Below, piece by piece: positions 9,020 to 15,107 of a stretch of DNA of 64,000 bases. The translations under genes were made by a program, and so were the position numbers. The notes under the pieces were generated by a model that searched no databases, was not told the DNA's origin, and worked only from the letters and a program-made list of their open reading frames with translations. Origin of the DNA: a phage; the sequence record NC_135729.1. One strand, 5' to 3'. Each line of letters opens with the position of its first letter. Position 1 is the first letter of the stretch.

Positions 9020-9333
9020 TGATCAGTCTCCTTCTTGTTAAGTCTGAATACTGCAATAATAGCATTCCCAAGGTGCAGTGTCAAATCATTTCCAAGATAC
9101 CACAGCATTCCACGGTCATCTTTGATGAAAGGGTAGCAATTTGGTGCCTTCCAGACATTGTACACTTTCCCAACCTGAAAGAAATCAGGCCCTGTTGGGA
9201 TTTTAGTGCCTGGCCACACTTGAGATACCTGAACACACTCCACCTGCATAATAACAGGGATAGTCATGGATGTAAATGTTTTTGTTGGTTCTACTACCAT
9301 AAAAGTCTCCTCTTTGCTCAACAACACTTCCAT
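9016..9333 (-). CDS. hypothetical protein
   Basis: track ORF 9016-9390 overlaps polymerase exon 2; internal Met (MEVLLSKEE) start at 9333 preferred. Confidence 0.3.
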   Translation of the reverse strand: MEVLLSKEETFMVVEPTKTFTSMTIPVIMQVECVQVSQVWPGTKIPTGPDFFQVGKVYNVWKAPNCYPFIKDDRGMLWYLGNDLTLHLGNAIIAVFRLNKKETDQ

Positions 9334-9349
9334 GTGTTGATAGTTTACA

Positions 9350-9703
9350 TTAGTGACAATCACCCCAATTACGACCACACAGGTATTCACCTGTGATCTG
9401 GAACGGGACGCCCATCATTTTAGAAGCTTGCCAGAAGCAATGCACCACCATTTCACCCACAGGGCTCCAGATAAGTTCAAGCTTTCCGTCATCGTTCAGG
9501 ATAGGATCGTACACCGTGTTTCCGTCTCTGTCAACCACTTCGTTTCCGTCCTCATCCTTGCGTGCCTTTTTGTACTTATGACCGTCGAACACATGAAGTT
9601 TGGCTTCCTGCTCTGCCTTAAATGCTTCCAATTCTTCAATTGTGTCGAAGGTGTACACAGTCTTATACTTAGGCGTGTCAGGGACCTGAAGTTGGTACTC
9701 ATC
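9350..9703 (-). CDS. DNA polymerase, family A, exon 2 (C-terminal)
   Basis: begins DEYQLQ..., completing motif C (H-DE) with the last His of exon 1; ends GRNWGDCH like T7 (GPNWAICH) and Klenow (GENWDQAH) C-termini. Confidence 0.75.
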   Translation of the reverse strand, partial: DEYQLQVPDTPKYKTVYTFDTIEELEAFKAEQEAKLHVFDGHKYKKARKDEDGNEVVDRDGNTVYDPILNDDGKLELIWSPVGEMVVHCFWQASKMMGVPFQITGEYLCGRNWGDCH

Positions 9704-10546
9704 CATCTGTTCAGGTAGGTCGTTAAGCTACCCCGCACCATTACGTGCATAGCCATACAGTTTCCTGTATGGATCGGACTACCTCACTGCCTTGGTAACA
9801 AGGCACCTCCCATTTCGACCGCACTTGCTGGCCTACTCTACTCGCTTCTTCACACCAACCTGTGTTGGAGCTATGCTTTCGATAGTCTCTGAACGTTACT
9901 ACCAGGTGTAGTTTTTAGAGATATGTTTCCACTGTCTTCTTTGCTTTATAGCCCTGACGGTCTCATAAGGATATCCAAGATCCCTAATCTCGCATTGTCG
10001 TAGACCACTCTGCAACAGTTCGCAAATCTCTATTACCTCATCTTCTGTCAGCACAGCGTTGGCATTATACTCACCAACTGGCCTTACTCTGAGGTCATTA
10101 TCATAGGCGTGCTTGATATTTCCACCAGGGGTGGTCCATTCCAGGTTCCAGTATGCATTGTTGTACTTATTCCCATCCTTATGGTTCACCCATGTGAGCC
10201 TTTCAGGATCTGGGTTTGATACAAAGCATTCAGCAACCAGGTGGTGGACACCTTTTGTGCACTGCTTCCCCTCGATTAGCATGGTTACGCAAAGGTAACC
10301 TCTACCATTATCAAAACAAAACATTGCTGTATGATCACGTTTCGATAAAGGTATTGTTCCATCATCAAACACGGTATACCCGTGATAATCAGCTGTTCTA
10401 GCCATTTTAACTACACCCCTTTAGTCTTCGCTGCGGATTAGCATATTGAGCTTTTACCATACTCAGGTGTAAAAGTCAACTTAGCTTTCCCGTCAATTAA
10501 AGAGGTTATTCGACATAGATCACTCTATGAAGCCACAATGTTATTT
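9704..10546 (-). mobile_element. group I self-splicing intron with HNH homing-endonuclease ORF
   Basis: minus-strand core elements: P-like TTAATTGACGGGAAAGC, Q AATCCGCAGC, R GTTCAGAGACTA, S-like AAGCATAGCTCC; exon 1 ends in U (..CAU), intron ends in G; candidate P1 pairing exon CCAU with intron GUGG (U.G at the splice site); in-frame stop right after the exon-1 His. Confidence 0.75.
9899..10405 (-). CDS. HNH homing endonuclease (intron-encoded)
   Basis: GVHHLVAECFVSNPDPERLTWVNHKDGNKYNNAYWNLEWTT = H-N-H His-Me finger motif; sits between the Q and R elements of the intron. Confidence 0.8.
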   Translation of the reverse strand: MARTADYHGYTVFDDGTIPLSKRDHTAMFCFDNGRGYLCVTMLIEGKQCTKGVHHLVAECFVSNPDPERLTWVNHKDGNKYNNAYWNLEWTTPGGNIKHAYDNDLRVRPVGEYNANAVLTEDEVIEICELLQSGLRQCEIRDLGYPYETVRAIKQRRQWKHISKNYTW

Positions 10547-12970
10547 ATGGTAATAGATAATACGACGGACACCTTCATCGTACCACCCACGCTTCACCAT
10601 TTGGTGGTGCATGAGTATCCCAACTAAGTCACACAGCGATGCACCACCATTCTGTTGGTATGCATTAAGTAAAGAGTGTTTAGATCGGGTCCAGATAGCA
10701 TGACCATCAAAAGAGTAGATAAACTTCTTACCCGTTGCTTCCCAGAATTTCTCCAGATCCTCTTTACGCCCCTTAAGACCAGGGTTGGCATCCCAAAGTG
10801 CATCGATTACCCTTTGTCCCAACTCTGGAGAGATGTCCAGCATATCTGCAACTTTATCTTTTTGTGCCCCGTACATAACCCCATACGTGATAGGTTTACC
10901 GTCGTTACGAGACACCTCTCTGCCTGCTACTTTTGTATATGCCTCAGCATTGTTTTGGTGTGCGTCCCCGTTACTTACAACATCATAATACAAGCCGTTG
11001 TCGAACTCAAAGGCACCCCAAGCCCCGATAAGCTGCTCTAAGTTGGACCCGTCAATACCGATCTCAAAGTATCCTGGAGGAACACCCCACAGACTGCGCA
11101 TCTCTTTACCCATAACCACTTTAGGAGATGGTTTAGGCATGTTTGCACAAATACTGTGTTTCTGTCGGGAAGTGTTTGTTAATCCAGAACTTTTAGCAGG
11201 AAGCTTATGGTCAATCTTCAAACGTGGGTGATTAAGAAGACCAGTATCAACCTTATCCTCCTTGATTGGATCAAGGACCGATCTGCGGTTTCGCAATGAT
11301 AACCACAAGACGATATCTTTAGCCATCTCTCCGTTCAATTTTTCAAGATTTGGGCATAGGTGTCCAAACGTATCTTTCAGCTGCGGAGAAGTAATAAGTG
11401 CTCTGGCTTTTCTACGTATTTTCCCGAATACTTCCTTTTTAATCCTTTCGGAGTTAGGAAAGCTTCGGAACTTGTGCACGGTTGTCTGAAACTTAGCATC
11501 AGTTTTGTTCCAGAAGTTGATAATTAGGTCACAATACTCTGACTCTAAAAGCTCGTCCATGTATGCATATACTCGTGCATCAACATCTGCATCAGGTAGA
11601 GCTTTCTTCTTGCTGTCTTTAGTTACATCCTTAGTTCTCCACATTGTCGGAAGCCAACCAGCACTGATCAGGTATCGCTTAATGTCGTCCTGATTGCTGA
11701 TTTTCATAGGTATCTTGCAGTCCGGCATTCGCTTCTGCTGTAGATCACTTATTGCCTGATCCATCAGCTCTTTAGGTAAAGGTTGTGGTGTGGAAGTGCC
11801 CTTAATATAGCCTCTCAAGAAATCAGCCATCTTATCAGGGTCTTTGCAGCCCATCTCTTCACACCATTTTATCCCCATCTTACTGACATCTCCTGTGGAG
11901 GTAAATGCTCGCTTAGGCGGGGCTTTGAACTCTAAAGCGCTCATGTCTACAGGATAGCCAAGCTTATCTTTTAACCATTTCCAACCATTATTGGAGATTG
12001 TCCCATCTTGGTTAAACGGCTTTTCAGGGAACTTGGGCCGCTGAGACATTGACAGCTCTTTTAAAGGTAGTTGTGGTTCAACACGATCAGCTATTTCTTT
12101 CATCCACGCATCACAACGGTCACGTAAAGCAATAGCTCCATCTATGTCAAAATACACACCCTGACGGGCCTGCAGCTCCATCAGGAAGTGCTGCAGCATG
12201 CCTCGGCATAGTGCGTTCTTCCAGGTGATCTTCTTGAACCCTTTCGGCTTCTCTTTGGCAGGATCGTACATAAAGTTCTGCATGTCAGACTTGCCGTAGA
12301 ATACACCTTTTGATTCCGCTACCAGTTCTTTCCAGAGCAGCTCCTGGATGATAACGTCCTCAAATACACGATCCACATACTTCCACAACGGAAGATCGCG
12401 CCAGTCATCAATTTGAACTTTCTGGTTACCAAGAGCATAGCCCCATGCCATAAGGCCGTGAGGACCAACAGGCTGCATTTTCTTAGTGACCGGGTTGAAT
12501 ACAGAGTCCGGACAACCTTTTGGTAAAGGGCGATCAGGCCACAAGATTCGACTCATCGCCAACGTATCAAACAGGTTAACCTGGTGGTCGTTGATAGTCC
12601 CCATGCATTTAGGATCACGGAACATGTCAAAATGAATACCGGATAATCTTTCCATCAGCATAAAGTCATAACTGTAGCAGTTATGGCAGTTCAAAGCTGT
12701 TGGTGACCAGTCAGAATTGCCTGTAAGCCAACCTTCCAACTCCGAAAAATCTGCTATGCGAACTTCAAAATCTTTATAAAGAGTTTTCTTTGCCAGAATG
12801 AAGTTCTTAGCCTTTTCTATATCCTCCTCGGAGTAGTGTGTGCGGTCATTTAGAGGAAGGAACAGCATAAAACGGTTCTTATTCAGCTCTTTAAACAGAC
12901 CGCAGTGATAATAAAGATCTGGGTCTTCCAGCAAACCGGATGACTCAAAATCGAAAGACCACATACTCAT
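10547..12970 (-). CDS. DNA polymerase, family A with 3'-5' exonuclease domain, exon 1
   Basis: Exo I FDFESSG; motif A DGSNLEQ; motif B RNDGKPITYGVMYGAQ; LNAYQQNGGASLCDL resembles Klenow INAPMQGTAADIIK; ORF stops at ..IIYYH-K-stop exactly where motif C (HDE) is expected (stop at 10541-10543 is intronic). Confidence 0.85.
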
Positions 12971-13028
12971 ATACAGTTCTCCTTAAAGGGGAGGCGGTTG
13001 TACTACCCCTCCCACTCTTTGTTAAACA

Positions 13029-15107
13029 TTAAAAAGGCGTTTCATCATCCTCAAAACCAGGGACCGGGTCAGAGGATGGATCATCGTACTGGAGGTCTTC
13101 CTGCGTGTCAACAGGCTTAACAGTAGGAGTTACAACCTTATCAGCCACAACCTTGCCCATAGGTGTTTCTACAACTGCATGCTCCTGATCCTCAAACATA
13201 GCCTGAGGTCTCCAAACAACCTCCCCACCTTCTCCGTCTGTAAACATTTGCATTTCTTTGTCCCAGTACCAATTACTGGCATCATGGAACTTACCTGTGT
13301 GCGGGTCCATAACCAAAGTGTCAGCAATACCTAGAGTTTTTGCTGGACGGTTTTTAAGACCTACCAGACGGACACGTCCACGAGAACGATCCACCATTTC
13401 TTCGGCCTCGACACCTATGACTACCCAACTCAACTGTTCAAGCCCTGCCGATCCTCGCAAATTCTCTTTTCGCACAGGATACCAGAAAGGTAACGGGTTA
13501 CCATCCTTGTCCTTAGGAGGCACAATCTCTGTACGTTTGAGGTGAGCGATCACCAAGATAAACACGTTAAACTGCTTACAAAACGCAGCCAGCTGAGTCA
13601 TAGCCATGTCCAGTTCTTTTCGCTCATCCTTAACATTAAGCCCTGAAATTACCATGGACAGGTGATCCAGCACAATATAACGGCAATGGTACAGGCAAAC
13701 CATTTGCTTAAGCTTGGTAATCAACTCGTCCACCGGAATAGATCCGAAATGTTTGAACACTTTGATTTTTCCAGCTTTTGCCCATGATTGGTGAATCTCT
13801 GCGTGTTCTTGATCAGTTAAAAACTGGCTAGGATCTTCAACAAACTCTTTAACATCAAACCCTAACTGGTTTGCATACAAGGAGTTAATTGCTTCCTCTG
13901 GGTCCTCCTCAAGATGGATCATGCATAGACGATCATCCTCTTCATAGTCATCGGCCTTCGGGCATGTCGGGTCCATTAGGTATCTTGCAATACAGTGTTC
14001 CAGTTTTTTAGCCACGGTTGTTTTACCGCCGCCTGATGGACCTGTAAGCATTACGAGTGTCCCTTTGTGCAAGCCTTTTAGCATTTTTTGCAGTTTTGGG
14101 AACTCTGCACTGATATCTACCCCGTTGGAAGTCTTTTTCCGCAAAGACTCGATAGAGAAGTCTTCTAAATCCGACACAGCATCAGGCACATATTTAACAG
14201 GGTGCCGGAACATGTTGACAATATCTTCCAGCTTTTTAGCCTTCAGCATGTCTCGGATATCTTTTACACCGTCAGGGTCATTTACTTCACCAGGGTATTC
14301 TACGTGGTAAACGTTATCAGCCATCAAAAATGCTGCGATATTGTGCGTGGCCTCAACACCTTTAATGACGTGTTTTTGCTTCTCTACCTCGTTAGCTGCA
14401 TCGTTATCCATTGCCAGCACAACTGTTCCATAGCTACGGATAAACTTCTCATTGTTTGCAAAAGTATCTACTGCGTTTGCACATCCACAGTTAATTCCAA
14501 CAAAAGGCAGGCAGGGTTTTCCTGCCAAATCACCACCGTTGATAACTGCGTCGATCCCGTCCTGGACCTCTTTAGCCCACTGCTTCACCTTTGCCGGGGC
14601 TTTAGCGTTGGTGAGAATCCCTTTTACTTGTATCTGATATGCAGCCTGCCATGCTGCAATAACATCACCTTCTCCCTCACAAACGTTAATCTGCTTACGG
14701 TTGTTGGAAGATGCACACAGCTTTTGACCAAACATCTGGGAGTTGGCCTTTACGATGCCAACAACGGAGAAATGGCCCCTTTGCTCTTTAGGAATAGTCC
14801 AGTCACGCTTTTTGAAACCAGACAGATTTCCGTAGCGGTCGTAATATGGGAAATATGTTGCAGTGACTGTCACACCGTCTTCTTGGGACAATGCTGATCG
14901 CACACCAAAATATTGTGCAGCCATCAGACCGATATTTTGTTGTGGGACAGGGACAATTTTAGTATTTTCTAAAACAGTCTCTACAGTTTCAACTTCTTTT
15001 TCATCACGATAGTCTCGTTTCACACTTCCCCCACTTTTATACTTAGTTGCTTTCGGGTTTGGCTCACCGAAACGGTTGTATGCAGATGCCATAAATTTAC
15101 TTCCCAT
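13029..15107 (-). CDS. DNA primase-helicase (T7 gp4-like: TOPRIM primase + RecA-fold/DnaB-like helicase)
   Basis: TOPRIM-like VVLAMDNDAANE; Walker A MLTGPSGGGKTT; Walker B YIVLDHLS; 692 aa. Confidence 0.8.
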   Translation of the reverse strand: MGSKFMASAYNRFGEPNPKATKYKSGGSVKRDYRDEKEVETVETVLENTKIVPVPQQNIGLMAAQYFGVRSALSQEDGVTVTATYFPYYDRYGNLSGFKKRDWTIPKEQRGHFSVVGIVKANSQMFGQKLCASSNNRKQINVCEGEGDVIAAWQAAYQIQVKGILTNAKAPAKVKQWAKEVQDGIDAVINGGDLAGKPCLPFVGINCGCANAVDTFANNEKFIRSYGTVVLAMDNDAANEVEKQKHVIKGVEATHNIAAFLMADNVYHVEYPGEVNDPDGVKDIRDMLKAKKLEDIVNMFRHPVKYVPDAVSDLEDFSIESLRKKTSNGVDISAEFPKLQKMLKGLHKGTLVMLTGPSGGGKTTVAKKLEHCIARYLMDPTCPKADDYEEDDRLCMIHLEEDPEEAINSLYANQLGFDVKEFVEDPSQFLTDQEHAEIHQSWAKAGKIKVFKHFGSIPVDELITKLKQMVCLYHCRYIVLDHLSMVISGLNVKDERKELDMAMTQLAAFCKQFNVFILVIAHLKRTEIVPPKDKDGNPLPFWYPVRKENLRGSAGLEQLSWVVIGVEAEEMVDRSRGRVRLVGLKNRPAKTLGIADTLVMDPHTGKFHDASNWYWDKEMQMFTDGEGGEVVWRPQAMFEDQEHAVVETPMGKVVADKVVTPTVKPVDTQEDLQYDDPSSDPVPGFEDDETPF

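Follow-up and report, generated by a model that had tools for sequence, protein, structure and literature searches.

The window, a stretch of 64,000 nt from the phage record NC_135729.1, comes from an rV5-like coliphage whose DNA polymerase gene is broken exactly at the catalytic His-Asp-Glu motif. Both parts of the gene lie on the minus strand, and the interval between them carries a reading frame of its own. We assigned the following features to the locus, where the intron and the products of its parts are predictions:

10547 to 12970, minus strand: DNA polymerase exon 1 (family A, T7-like), codons 1-808, ending ..IIYYH (from the ORF list, Pfam and a match to slur12).
9350 to 9703, minus strand: DNA polymerase exon 2, 117 codons plus stop, DEYQLQ..GRNWGDCH (ORF list, slur12 and T7 gp5).
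9704 to 10546, minus strand: predicted group I intron of 843 nt with IA2-like architecture, 5' splice site after U10547, omega-G at 9704 (Rfam, pair table and homologues).
10533 to 10550, minus strand: P1 hairpin with the internal guide sequence (sequence and pair table).
10514 to 10529, minus strand: P2 hairpin (CAUAG/CUAUG), with compensatory double changes in 5/5 pairs among homologues.
10432 to 10506, minus strand: 5' strand of P3 (10506-10502), then the P4-P5-P5a-P5b domain, which includes the P and Q elements (Rfam alignment and pair counts).
9893 to 10431, minus strand: P6 and a long P6a arm holding the endonuclease gene (comparison with the ORF-less JLBYU08 intron).
9899 to 10405, minus strand: putative HNH homing endonuclease ORF, 168 aa, I-HmuI-like, in the P6a loop (PHROG 59; PDB 1u3e).
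9776 to 9892, minus strand: J6/7, P7 5' strand, P7.1, P7.2, P3 3' strand, P8 and P7 3' strand (pair table; compensatory changes in P3, P7, P7.2 and P8).
9704 to 9772, minus strand: P9 (9772-9753), P9.1 (9748-9735), P9.2 (9732-9714) and the 3' tail to omega-G 9704 (compensatory changes in P9, P9.1 and P9.2).

The interrupted polymerase gene

The exon-1 reading frame (12970..10541, minus strand, 809 aa) ends ..RRIIYYHK followed by a stop, so that the unspliced frame is closed one codon past the exon (AAA UAA, 10546..10541). The exon-2 reading frame (9706..9350, minus strand, 118 aa) starts MDEYQLQ and ends GRNWGDCH. From it come the Asp-Glu pair that is catalytic in motif C and the His at the C-terminus, and 834 nt separate the exon-1 stop codon from its ATG. 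The initial annotation had described a stop one codon after ..IIYYH and a second ORF about 840 nt downstream, and both descriptions were accurate.

Joining the exons gives 2778 nt and 925 aa. The product aligned without gaps to the contiguous polymerase CDS of slur12, with 96.9% nucleotide identity and two amino acid differences, and the joined polymerase of the sister phage HeinrichReichert is the same at every residue as that of the intron-less phages DrSchubert and nomine. In the comparison with intron-less polymerases that had been suggested as a check on the initial annotation, the joined exons are colinear. Exon 1 matched Pfam DNA_pol_A at a sub-threshold 27.9 bits. T7 gp5 chains matched the joined polymerase with E = 1.4e-13, the alignment running across the junction (..iiyyHDEyql on ..maWVHDEIQV) and colinear with T7 gp5 H653-D654-E655. 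Once joined, the exons thus present the motif C His-Asp-Glu and the colinear palm and C-terminal regions of a family A enzyme. Judged from these sequences, the DNA polymerase of this phage is one 925-aa protein and not two genes.

Ribozyme core and splice sites

The split between YYH and DE sets the length of the interval at 843 nt (10546..9704). A P element (AAUUGACGGGAAAG) and a Q element (AAUCCGCAGC) lie 5' of the HNH ORF, and an R element (GUUCAGAGACUA) and an S element (GAGGUAGUCC) lie 3' of it; the Rfam consensus is identical to Q and R, letter for letter. At the splice sites, P1 forms between CCAU of the exon (10550-10547) and GUGG of the intron (10536-10533), which places the U10547•G10536 pair at the 5' splice site, and CAUU (10540-10537) pairs with GAUG of exon 2 (9703-9700) to form P10. 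P1 was unchanged in 10/10 homologues and P10 was 97.5% paired in the pair table; the U•G pair, P10 and omega-G were invariant or nearly so among the ten. These results agree with what had been read from the letters at first, namely core elements flanking an HNH ORF with Q and R exact to consensus, an exon ending in U, an intron ending in G (here G9704) and a CCAU/GUGG pairing.

The remaining helices could be placed in order along the intron. P4 is formed by 10495-10489 with 10437-10432 and P6 by 10431-10430 with 9894-9893. The R element provides the 5' strand of P7 (G9889, 9887-9883) and the S element its 3' strand (9781-9776), and between them lie the P3 3' strand (9809-9805) and P8 (9804-9789). 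According to a published description, subgroup IA2 is marked by P7.1 and P7.2 between P7 and the P3 3' strand and by a G-U-A linker (PMC3428280). Between P7 and P3' the window intron is 68 nt longer than the Rfam core. Within this stretch, P7.2 (9833-9830 with 9820-9817) showed double changes in 2/4 pairs, the linker GUAG was invariant in 10/10 sequences and P7.1 was variable in length.

A search with the Rfam Intron_gpI model (RF00028, gathering score 50 bits), which the initial annotation had proposed, succeeded for a sibling of the intron and fell short for the window itself. At the gathering threshold the window gave no match; a permissive search returned 29.6 bits (E = 3e-5 in a 1.5-kb search and 1.3e-3 in the whole window), in an alignment whose 3' half was forced wrongly into the ORF. 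The window intron scores below the gathering threshold because a 528-nt ORF-bearing insert in P6a splits its core. The ORF-less intron of JLBYU08, whose shared core departs from that of the window at 1 nt, scored 72.5 bits (E = 1e-17), and six more ORF-less homologues at the same YH-DE site scored 64.7-91.2 bits, so that all seven ORF-less forms exceeded the threshold. Through the insert-free JLBYU08 copy, we take the conserved core of RF00028 to be present in the window as well. Seven IMG/VR contigs that carry the same 5' intron signature in other contexts gave no Rfam match when scanned.

The minimum free energy (MFE) of the ORF-deleted core had a z-score of -1.36. Because this value is uninformative for a pseudoknotted ribozyme, we relied on covariation, using ten homologous introns and 72 base pairs, with slid partners and 500 shuffles as controls. 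In the ten homologues 94.9% of cells were paired, compared with 35-40% when partners were slid, and 29/72 pairs showed double changes on both sides, compared with 2-6. None of the 500 shuffles reached the observed values for cells paired, for double-change pairs or cells, or for the covariation score. The number of additional pair types was not distinguishable from that in the shuffles (331/500). Covariation by compensatory substitution was strong in P2, P3, P7, P7.2, P8, P9, P9.1 and P9.2. With the colinear exons, the seven Rfam matches and the family of the ORF described below, these data support the original proposal, and we consider it very probable that motif C is split, after its His codon and before its Asp codon, by an 843-nt, IA2-like group I intron that encodes an HNH homing endonuclease.

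The HNH reading frame and its distribution

The ORF in the interval, which had been called HNH from the start, has 168 aa (10405..9899) and is of the I-HmuI type. It matched PHROG 59 with E = 1.6e-36 and I-HmuI (PDB 1u3e), the closest solved structure, with E = 3.4e-5. The latter alignment spans HHLVAECF..VNHKDGNKYNN..NLEW with the H..N..N motif aligned, and a comparison of four intron ORFs showed no change at H54, H75, N82, N83 or N87. The ORFs of the AV124 and PBES02 introns are 56-57% identical to that of the window, and the ORF has a probable C-terminal DNA-binding helix region.

The ORF is positioned in the P6a loop, between Q and R, a placement that adds a detail to the earlier reading. 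The P6a stem pairs GGGUGUAGUU (10418-10409) with AACUACACCU (9913-9904), that is, the Shine-Dalgarno region of the ORF with its last codons. The stem formed when the full 859-nt transcript was folded by MFE and again in mini-constructs, and the AV124 and PBES02 introns have analogous P6a stems. In this folding model, pairing of the ribosome-binding region with the 3' end of the ORF probably limits endonuclease expression before splicing or processing of the RNA. The td intron of phage T4 is likewise an IA2 ribozyme in an essential phage gene, with an endonuclease ORF looped from P6 whose start is sequestered in RNA structure; it differs in its host gene, thymidylate synthase, and in its endonuclease, I-TevI, which is of the GIY-YIG and not the HNH family.

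In an evenly spread sample of 60 of the 116 Vequintavirus records, 30/60 were intron-less at this site, 18/60 carried an ORF-bearing intron (842-843 nt) and 12/60 an ORF-less one, which measured 276 nt in 10/60 and 328 nt in 2/60. The intron is thus patchily present and absent among phages whose exons are about 97% identical, which, with the purifying selection on its ORF, speaks indirectly for homing. The same site is filled in Avunavirus, Mydovirus, Seunavirus, Certrevirus and Vibrio phages.

This pattern bears on a reading in which the intron splices while its HNH ORF is a decaying passenger, inactive or unable to recognise this site any more, so that the element is inherited only vertically or by ordinary recombination. 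The common ORF-less derivatives of 328-329 and 276 nt at the same site fit the gain-and-loss cycle of homing endonucleases, and a Pfam HNH_3 score of 17.7 bits, which stays below the cut-off of 24.8, also favours this reading. We nevertheless judge it unlikely, since the full 168-aa ORF is preserved within a cluster of 155 members (90% identity), its H..N..N motif lines up with that of I-HmuI and does not vary among the four intron ORFs, and about half of the sister phages still offer intron-less targets. Its pN/pS of 0.06-0.11 likewise speaks against decay, and the pattern of substitution indicates that the ORF is subject to purifying selection.

Known systems, and the proposed splicing and homing

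A close relative with transcript data is the CB7_50 intron of Pectobacterium phage vB_PatM_CB7 (Certrevirus, Vequintavirinae), which is gone from the mRNA of infected cells by RT-PCR and Sanger sequencing (PMC7344957, Table 3). It has the identical codon junction (..RRIIYYH-DEYQLE..) and is homologous to the window intron at its 5' end (AAGUAACAUUGUGGCUU..) and in its 3' half, from P7 to omega-G. It differs in having another, shorter HNH ORF (127 aa, 31% identical) and a rearranged P5-P6 region, and the CB7 polymerase gene holds a second intron further upstream that the window lacks.

By description, the intron also resembles those of the T7-like phages ΦI and W31, although these are podoviruses and the window is from an rV5-like myovirus. 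As cited in PMC3428280, theirs is an IA2 intron with an HNH endonuclease (I-TslI) in a family A, T7-type polymerase, with P7.1 and P7.2 and with the ORF in P6a behind a weak or sequestered ribosome-binding site; the insertion falls on the His of HDE (position 881 in E. coli Pol I), as in the window. The introns of SPO1, SP82 and Bastille (I-HmuI, I-HmuII and I-BasI) and of Pf-WMP3 (I-PfoP3I) are also group I introns that interrupt a family A polymerase of a phage and carry a nicking HNH endonuclease; they sit at Pol I position 674 in the fingers subdomain instead of 881 (PMC3428280), and the similarity of the window ORF to these endonucleases is limited to the HNH core.

The element is ordinary and already known, since public records of sister phages annotate it. 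In the BASEL phages HeinrichReichert (bas58_0076) and EmilHeitz (bas49_0077), the region is 93-98% identical in nucleotide sequence with no substantive difference, and the GenBank records join the polymerase CDS from two parts, between which they place a 'putative homing endonuclease'. There, the intron boundaries were placed through comparative genomics (PMC8594841). Most other records, including RefSeq, have a separate 'DNA polymerase' CDS for each part, along with an HNH gene, and the rV5 genome paper describes introns in the terminase gene only and none in the polymerase.

Two separate CDSs would be correct if the gene were truly split, with flanks and HNH gene retained in the RNA and the polymerase made up of two polypeptides translated independently. 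In Aeromonas phage Aeh1, NrdA, split by mobE, is reportedly assembled in this manner. An HNH ORF between gene halves is not by itself proof of splicing, because one HNH-interrupted gene in the CB7 study was unspliced (PMC7344957), and an AUG (9706-9704) lies in frame just ahead of exon 2, so that ORF callers and many GenBank records give this exon its own CDS. This AUG, however, is not conserved: homologues have UUG or GUG, and only its final G is invariant. A search of the sequence upstream of exon 2 (9706) found no Shine-Dalgarno sequence, and the Mangalyan record, which annotates ribosome-binding sites for neighbouring genes, gives none for the exon-2 fragment. Furthermore, the break lies within the HDE catalytic motif, a full, covarying ribozyme core surrounds the ORF and the homologous CB7 intron is spliced. 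The interruption is also not simply an inserted endonuclease gene, because ORF-less introns fill the same site. The Aeh1 nrdA/mobE type, with its own translation signals downstream and no surrounding ribozyme, does not describe this locus, and we regard a split gene as very improbable. We give practically no credence to an intein or to a recoding bypass by frameshift or readthrough in place of RNA splicing: relatives do have inteins in the same polymerase, with a 323-aa in-frame insert in exon 1 of Mangalyan and JEP1, but the ORF in the window has its own start and stop, the polymerase frame is closed through the interval by the in-frame stop one codon past the junction, and the interval has ribozyme structure and matches the group I covariance model.

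For the group I intron, we infer the following course. In the transcript, the intron would fold into a P1-P9.2 ribozyme, and an external guanosine would attack after U10547, kept in the U•G pair by the guide GUGG. P10 would then position the 3' exon, and ligation after omega-G 9704 would give the predicted RNA junction ..TATTACCAT/GATGAGTAC.. and a 925-aa polymerase (..IIYYH-DEYQLQ..) with the predicted junction-spanning peptide IIYYHDEYQLQVPDTPK. Unspliced RNA would yield a polymerase without the catalytic Asp-Glu. The free-standing ORF of the P6a loop would encode an I-HmuI-type HNH endonuclease. When a relative without the intron infects the same cell, this enzyme most likely nicks or cuts its polymerase allele close to the insertion site, and recombinational repair would copy the intron into that allele.

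More tentatively, we speculate that the HNH intron may be less a passive parasite than a weapon in interference competition among co-infecting rV5-like phages. If so, the endonuclease would harm the essential polymerase gene of intron-less rivals, about half of the known relatives, and favour the flanking markers of its carrier, and an ongoing arms race would have left its record in the chimeric introns and in the four allelic states that coexist at one codon. Marker exclusion by I-HmuI and I-HmuII has been described as an effect of this kind, and an intron-encoded endonuclease in a jumbo phage of Pseudomonas has recently been reported to act similarly.

For the biology of group I introns and homing endonucleases, the element offers nothing conceptually new. 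Its main value lies in annotation: the polymerase CDS is split in most records of the group, including RefSeq, and the ORF in P6a hides the intron from Rfam at the gathering threshold. It also provides a natural series of the homing cycle, with intron-less, ORF-bearing and two ORF-less forms at one codon; the phages are about 97% identical in other respects and have easy E. coli hosts.

Silent differences 3' of the insertion (GAT GAG TAC CAA versus GAC GAA TAT CAG) were considered as a mark of self-immunity or co-conversion in intron-plus alleles and rejected as a strict rule. The exon-2 haplotypes did not cleanly separate intron-plus from intron-less alleles: the 'intron' haplotype also occurs in three intron-less phages (Murica, Pr121LW and JohannBauhin), and JLBYU08 has the intron yet carries the other haplotype. 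The sole position common to all intron-plus alleles is the U at position +3, which is needed by P10.

The interrupted polymerase gene

Many records of rV5-like coliphages (Vequintavirus) match the full 3.7-kb region at 97-98.5% identity, and some of them label it, in turn, as DNA polymerase, HNH homing endonuclease and again DNA polymerase. In the ORF list, the polymerase and intron features lie downstream of a primase-helicase ORF:

15107..13029, minus strand: T7 gp4-like primase-helicase ORF
12970..10541, minus strand: polymerase exon-1 ORF, 809 aa, ending ..RRIIYYHK-stop
10405..9899, minus strand: HNH ORF, 168 aa
9706..9350, minus strand: polymerase exon-2 ORF, 118 aa, starting MDEYQLQ and ending GRNWGDCH

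We let exon 1 end with the His codon's U (10547) and exon 2 start with the Asp codon's G (9703). The intervening sequence is 843 nt long (10546..9704), starts AAAUAACAUUGUGG and ends ..GAACAGAUG. Exon CCAU pairs with intron GUGG to form P1, with the U•G wobble falling on the splice site. Exon 2 opens with GAUG, and these four bases can form P10 with the CAUU directly 5' of GUGG. Every particular of the initial annotation was confirmed, namely a polymerase ORF closing one codon past ..IIYYH, the downstream MDEYQLQ..GRNWGDCH ORF, an HNH ORF in between, an exon ending in U, an intron ending in G and an available P1.

The joined exons (2778 nt) align without gaps to the uninterrupted polymerase CDS of slur12, with 85 nt and 2 aa differences, and joining the exons of the near-identical phage HeinrichReichert gives a product that equals the annotated polymerase of the intron-less DrSchubert and nomine in every residue; the colinearity with intron-less relatives that the initial annotation had proposed as a check thus holds. 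In a search of solved structures, the joined C-terminal region matched T7 DNA polymerase (E = 1.4e-13) in an alignment that crosses the junction and places ..iiyyHDEyql on ..maWVHDEIQV. These alignments show that the two exons belong to one gene.

Structure of the ribozyme

At the gathering threshold, Rfam gave no match in the window. A permissive search returned Intron_gpI at 29.6 bits (E = 3e-5 in a 1.5-kb search, 1.3e-3 for the whole window), with the 5' half aligned well and the 3' half pushed into the ORF; the match is weak because of a 528-nt insertion. The same intron in JLBYU08 is 329 nt long, has a 14-nt P6a hairpin instead of the ORF-bearing arm and differs from the window intron by one nucleotide in the shared core. 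It scored 72.5 bits (gathering score 50; E = 1e-17), and six more ORF-less introns at the same YH/DE junction (rV5, SYGMH1, Avunavirus 18-1-2, Mydovirus VLCpiM5b, Vibrio phage K412 and an IMG/VR contig) scored 64.7-91.2 bits. Over the whole 1-64000 window, the permissive scan (E up to 0.01) gave no RNA family signal besides the intron, and ARAGORN found no tRNA or tmRNA genes.

We scored a structure comprising P1-P10, including the P3/P7 pseudoknot, on an alignment of ten distinct homologues in which a tetraloop stood in for the P6a arm. Standard pairs occupied 94.9% of cells, compared with 35-40% when the 3' partners were slid by 1-3 columns, and both-sided changes occurred in 29 of 72 pairs, compared with 2-6 in the slid controls. 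None of 500 shuffles came up to the observed level of paired cells, of double changes or of the covariation score. Compensatory changes were seen in P2 (5/5 pairs), P3, P4, P5, P5a/P5b, P7, P7.2, P8, P9, P9.1 and P9.2. P1 was invariant and P10 nearly so among the ten homologues; this is expected, since the exon side of both helices encodes the HDE motif. Two additional helices, P7.1 and P7.2, separate P7 from P3' and have a GUAG linker that never varies. This architecture fits subgroup IA2, which is defined by P7.1/P7.2 (criterion quoted in PMC3428280).

The HNH reading frame and the proposed splicing

The HNH ORF follows the Q element and precedes the R element, in a loop extending from P6a. 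Its product matches PHROG 59 'HNH endonuclease' (E = 1.6e-36); its Pfam HNH_3 match is sub-threshold. The best solved relative is I-HmuI (1u3e, E = 3.4e-5, His/Asn catalytic motif aligned), a nicking endonuclease encoded by the SPO1 polymerase intron. The ORF belongs to a 155-member cluster (90% identity) and is 56-57% identical to the ORFs that the introns of Mydovirus AV124 and Certrevirus PBES02 carry at this position in P6a. Between diverged copies pN/pS is 0.06-0.11, and therefore the HNH protein is being maintained. The intron may be spliced while its endonuclease is no longer active, but this purifying selection speaks against such a loss.

A Shine-Dalgarno sequence, AAAGGGG, lies 10 nt ahead of the AUG. 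Its region, GGGUGUAGUU (10418-10409), pairs with the last codons of the ORF, AACUACACCU (9913-9904), in a stem that appears when the whole 859-nt precursor is folded by MFE; AV124 and PBES02 have analogous stems that include the start codon. Sequestration of the Shine-Dalgarno is the usual way in which phage intron ORFs stay poorly translated, and the stem could have a regulatory role in this intron as well.

In the best-supported account, inferred from the structure and a homologue, the precursor mRNA would fold, exogenous G would attack after U10547, P10 would align exon 2, and ligation after G9704 would restore ..YYH-DE... Unspliced RNA stops at the UAA one codon into the intron and would yield a polymerase without catalytic carboxylates, and the HNH protein would target intron-less alleles in mixed infections. 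The homologue, the CB7_50 intron of Pectobacterium phage CB7, is inserted at the identical codon (..RRIIYYH/DEYQLE..) and has homologous 5' and 3' ribozyme parts; its removal from mRNA was demonstrated by RT-PCR and Sanger sequencing (PMC7344957, Table 3), and CB7 supplies splicing data within the Vequintavirinae. That the polymerase is instead made as two polypeptides without splicing is highly improbable, as the AUG ahead of exon 2 is UUG or GUG in homologues and has no Shine-Dalgarno upstream, the Mangalyan record gives an RBS to each neighbouring CDS but none to the exon-2 fragment, and the break falls inside the catalytic motif. An intein or a recoding event as the cause of the interruption is ruled out by stop codons. 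We conclude that the group I intron with its HNH ORF is a real feature of the polymerase gene and that the earlier interpretation was correct.

According to the passages of PMC3428280 that cite Bonocora & Shub 2004, the polymerase introns of ΦI and W31, both T7-like phages, are self-splicing, belong to IA2 and contain an HNH ORF in P6a; they are inserted, as in the window, at the His of HDE (E. coli Pol I position 881). The introns of SPO1, SP82, Bastille and Pf-WMP3 also interrupt genes of this family, but their site is position 674. BASEL records bas58_0076 and bas49_0077 (flagged j2) already annotate the same element, with the polymerase CDS joined and a putative homing endonuclease inside it, and BASEL intron boundaries were set by comparative genomics (PMC8594841). 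The rV5 genome paper discussed terminase introns only, and our literature search found no paper explicitly describing the Vequintavirus polymerase intron. Given the BASEL annotation and the characterised precedents, the element is known already from public annotation and is a member of a well-characterised kind; new here are the secondary structure with covariation support and the allele census. We also add that most database records, including RefSeq NC_041869, NC_024134 and NC_019517, still split the polymerase into two separate CDSs with no join.

Intron alleles among related phages

Megablast with the joined junction region returned 116 Vequintavirus records, of which an evenly spaced sample of 60 was classified by match span.

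Polymerase alleles in the sampled Vequintavirus records
Intron-less: 30/60
842-843-nt ORF-bearing intron: 18/60
276-nt ORF-less intron (rV5 type strain included): 10/60
328-nt ORF-less intron: 2/60

The flanking exons are ~97% identical throughout the census, and the 276-nt form is only 69% identical overall to the window ribozyme. In the rV5 type strain (L005:3001-3276) this form occupies the same codon as the window intron; it matches the latter over 57 nt at its start and ~75 nt at its end, and its middle (P5, P7, P7.1, P8, P9) resembles the introns of Mydovirus/Seunavirus, a pattern suggestive of recombination between lineages of the intron. The patchwork of alleles is what a cycle of homing endonuclease gain, decay and loss predicts. 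In the 2013 rV5 record, the 276-nt intron is covered by short ORFs annotated as hypothetical.

The first 18 nt of exon 2 (window 9703..9686; L006, L020 and L044-L048 compared) form two silent-site haplotypes among intron-less sisters. Slur12, ECP26 and EI-SP-GF have GACGAATATCAG; Murica, Pr121LW and JohannBauhin have GATGAGTACCAA, as do nearly all intron-plus alleles, and the intron-plus JLBYU08 carries GATGAATATCAG. This pattern suggests past co-conversion and precise intron loss; a clean endonuclease-immunity signature was absent from the exon-2 haplotypes of the compared sister phages.

Nine IMG/VR loci (L029, L030, L032, L033, L034, L037, L040, L041 and L043) contain the 21-nt signature CCAT then AANNAANATTGTGGCTT without the YYH polymerase context, being preceded, for example, by the peptides ..GVLHFH or ..RRIARCH or by one that contains a stop codon. 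These loci may represent related introns with an ORF, inserted in other genes; the seven signature loci scanned gave no Rfam match at gathering score. In Mangalyan and JEP1 (L003:531-3929 and L002:531-3929), as well as in VB-EcoM-WM, 969 nt (323 aa) are inserted in frame into polymerase exon 1 behind ..NGDAH (window site ~10930); the insert starts CYSGDTQILTEKGW and ends ..VAVCGN then Cys. It looks like an intein, and the window polymerase is without it. Window 9300-13000 is matched best (98.3-98.5%) by the public records C12, A147 and A135, which bear the title 'Campylobacter phage'; C9 of the same series is flagged UNVERIFIED, although the sequence is that of a typical E. coli Vequintavirus.
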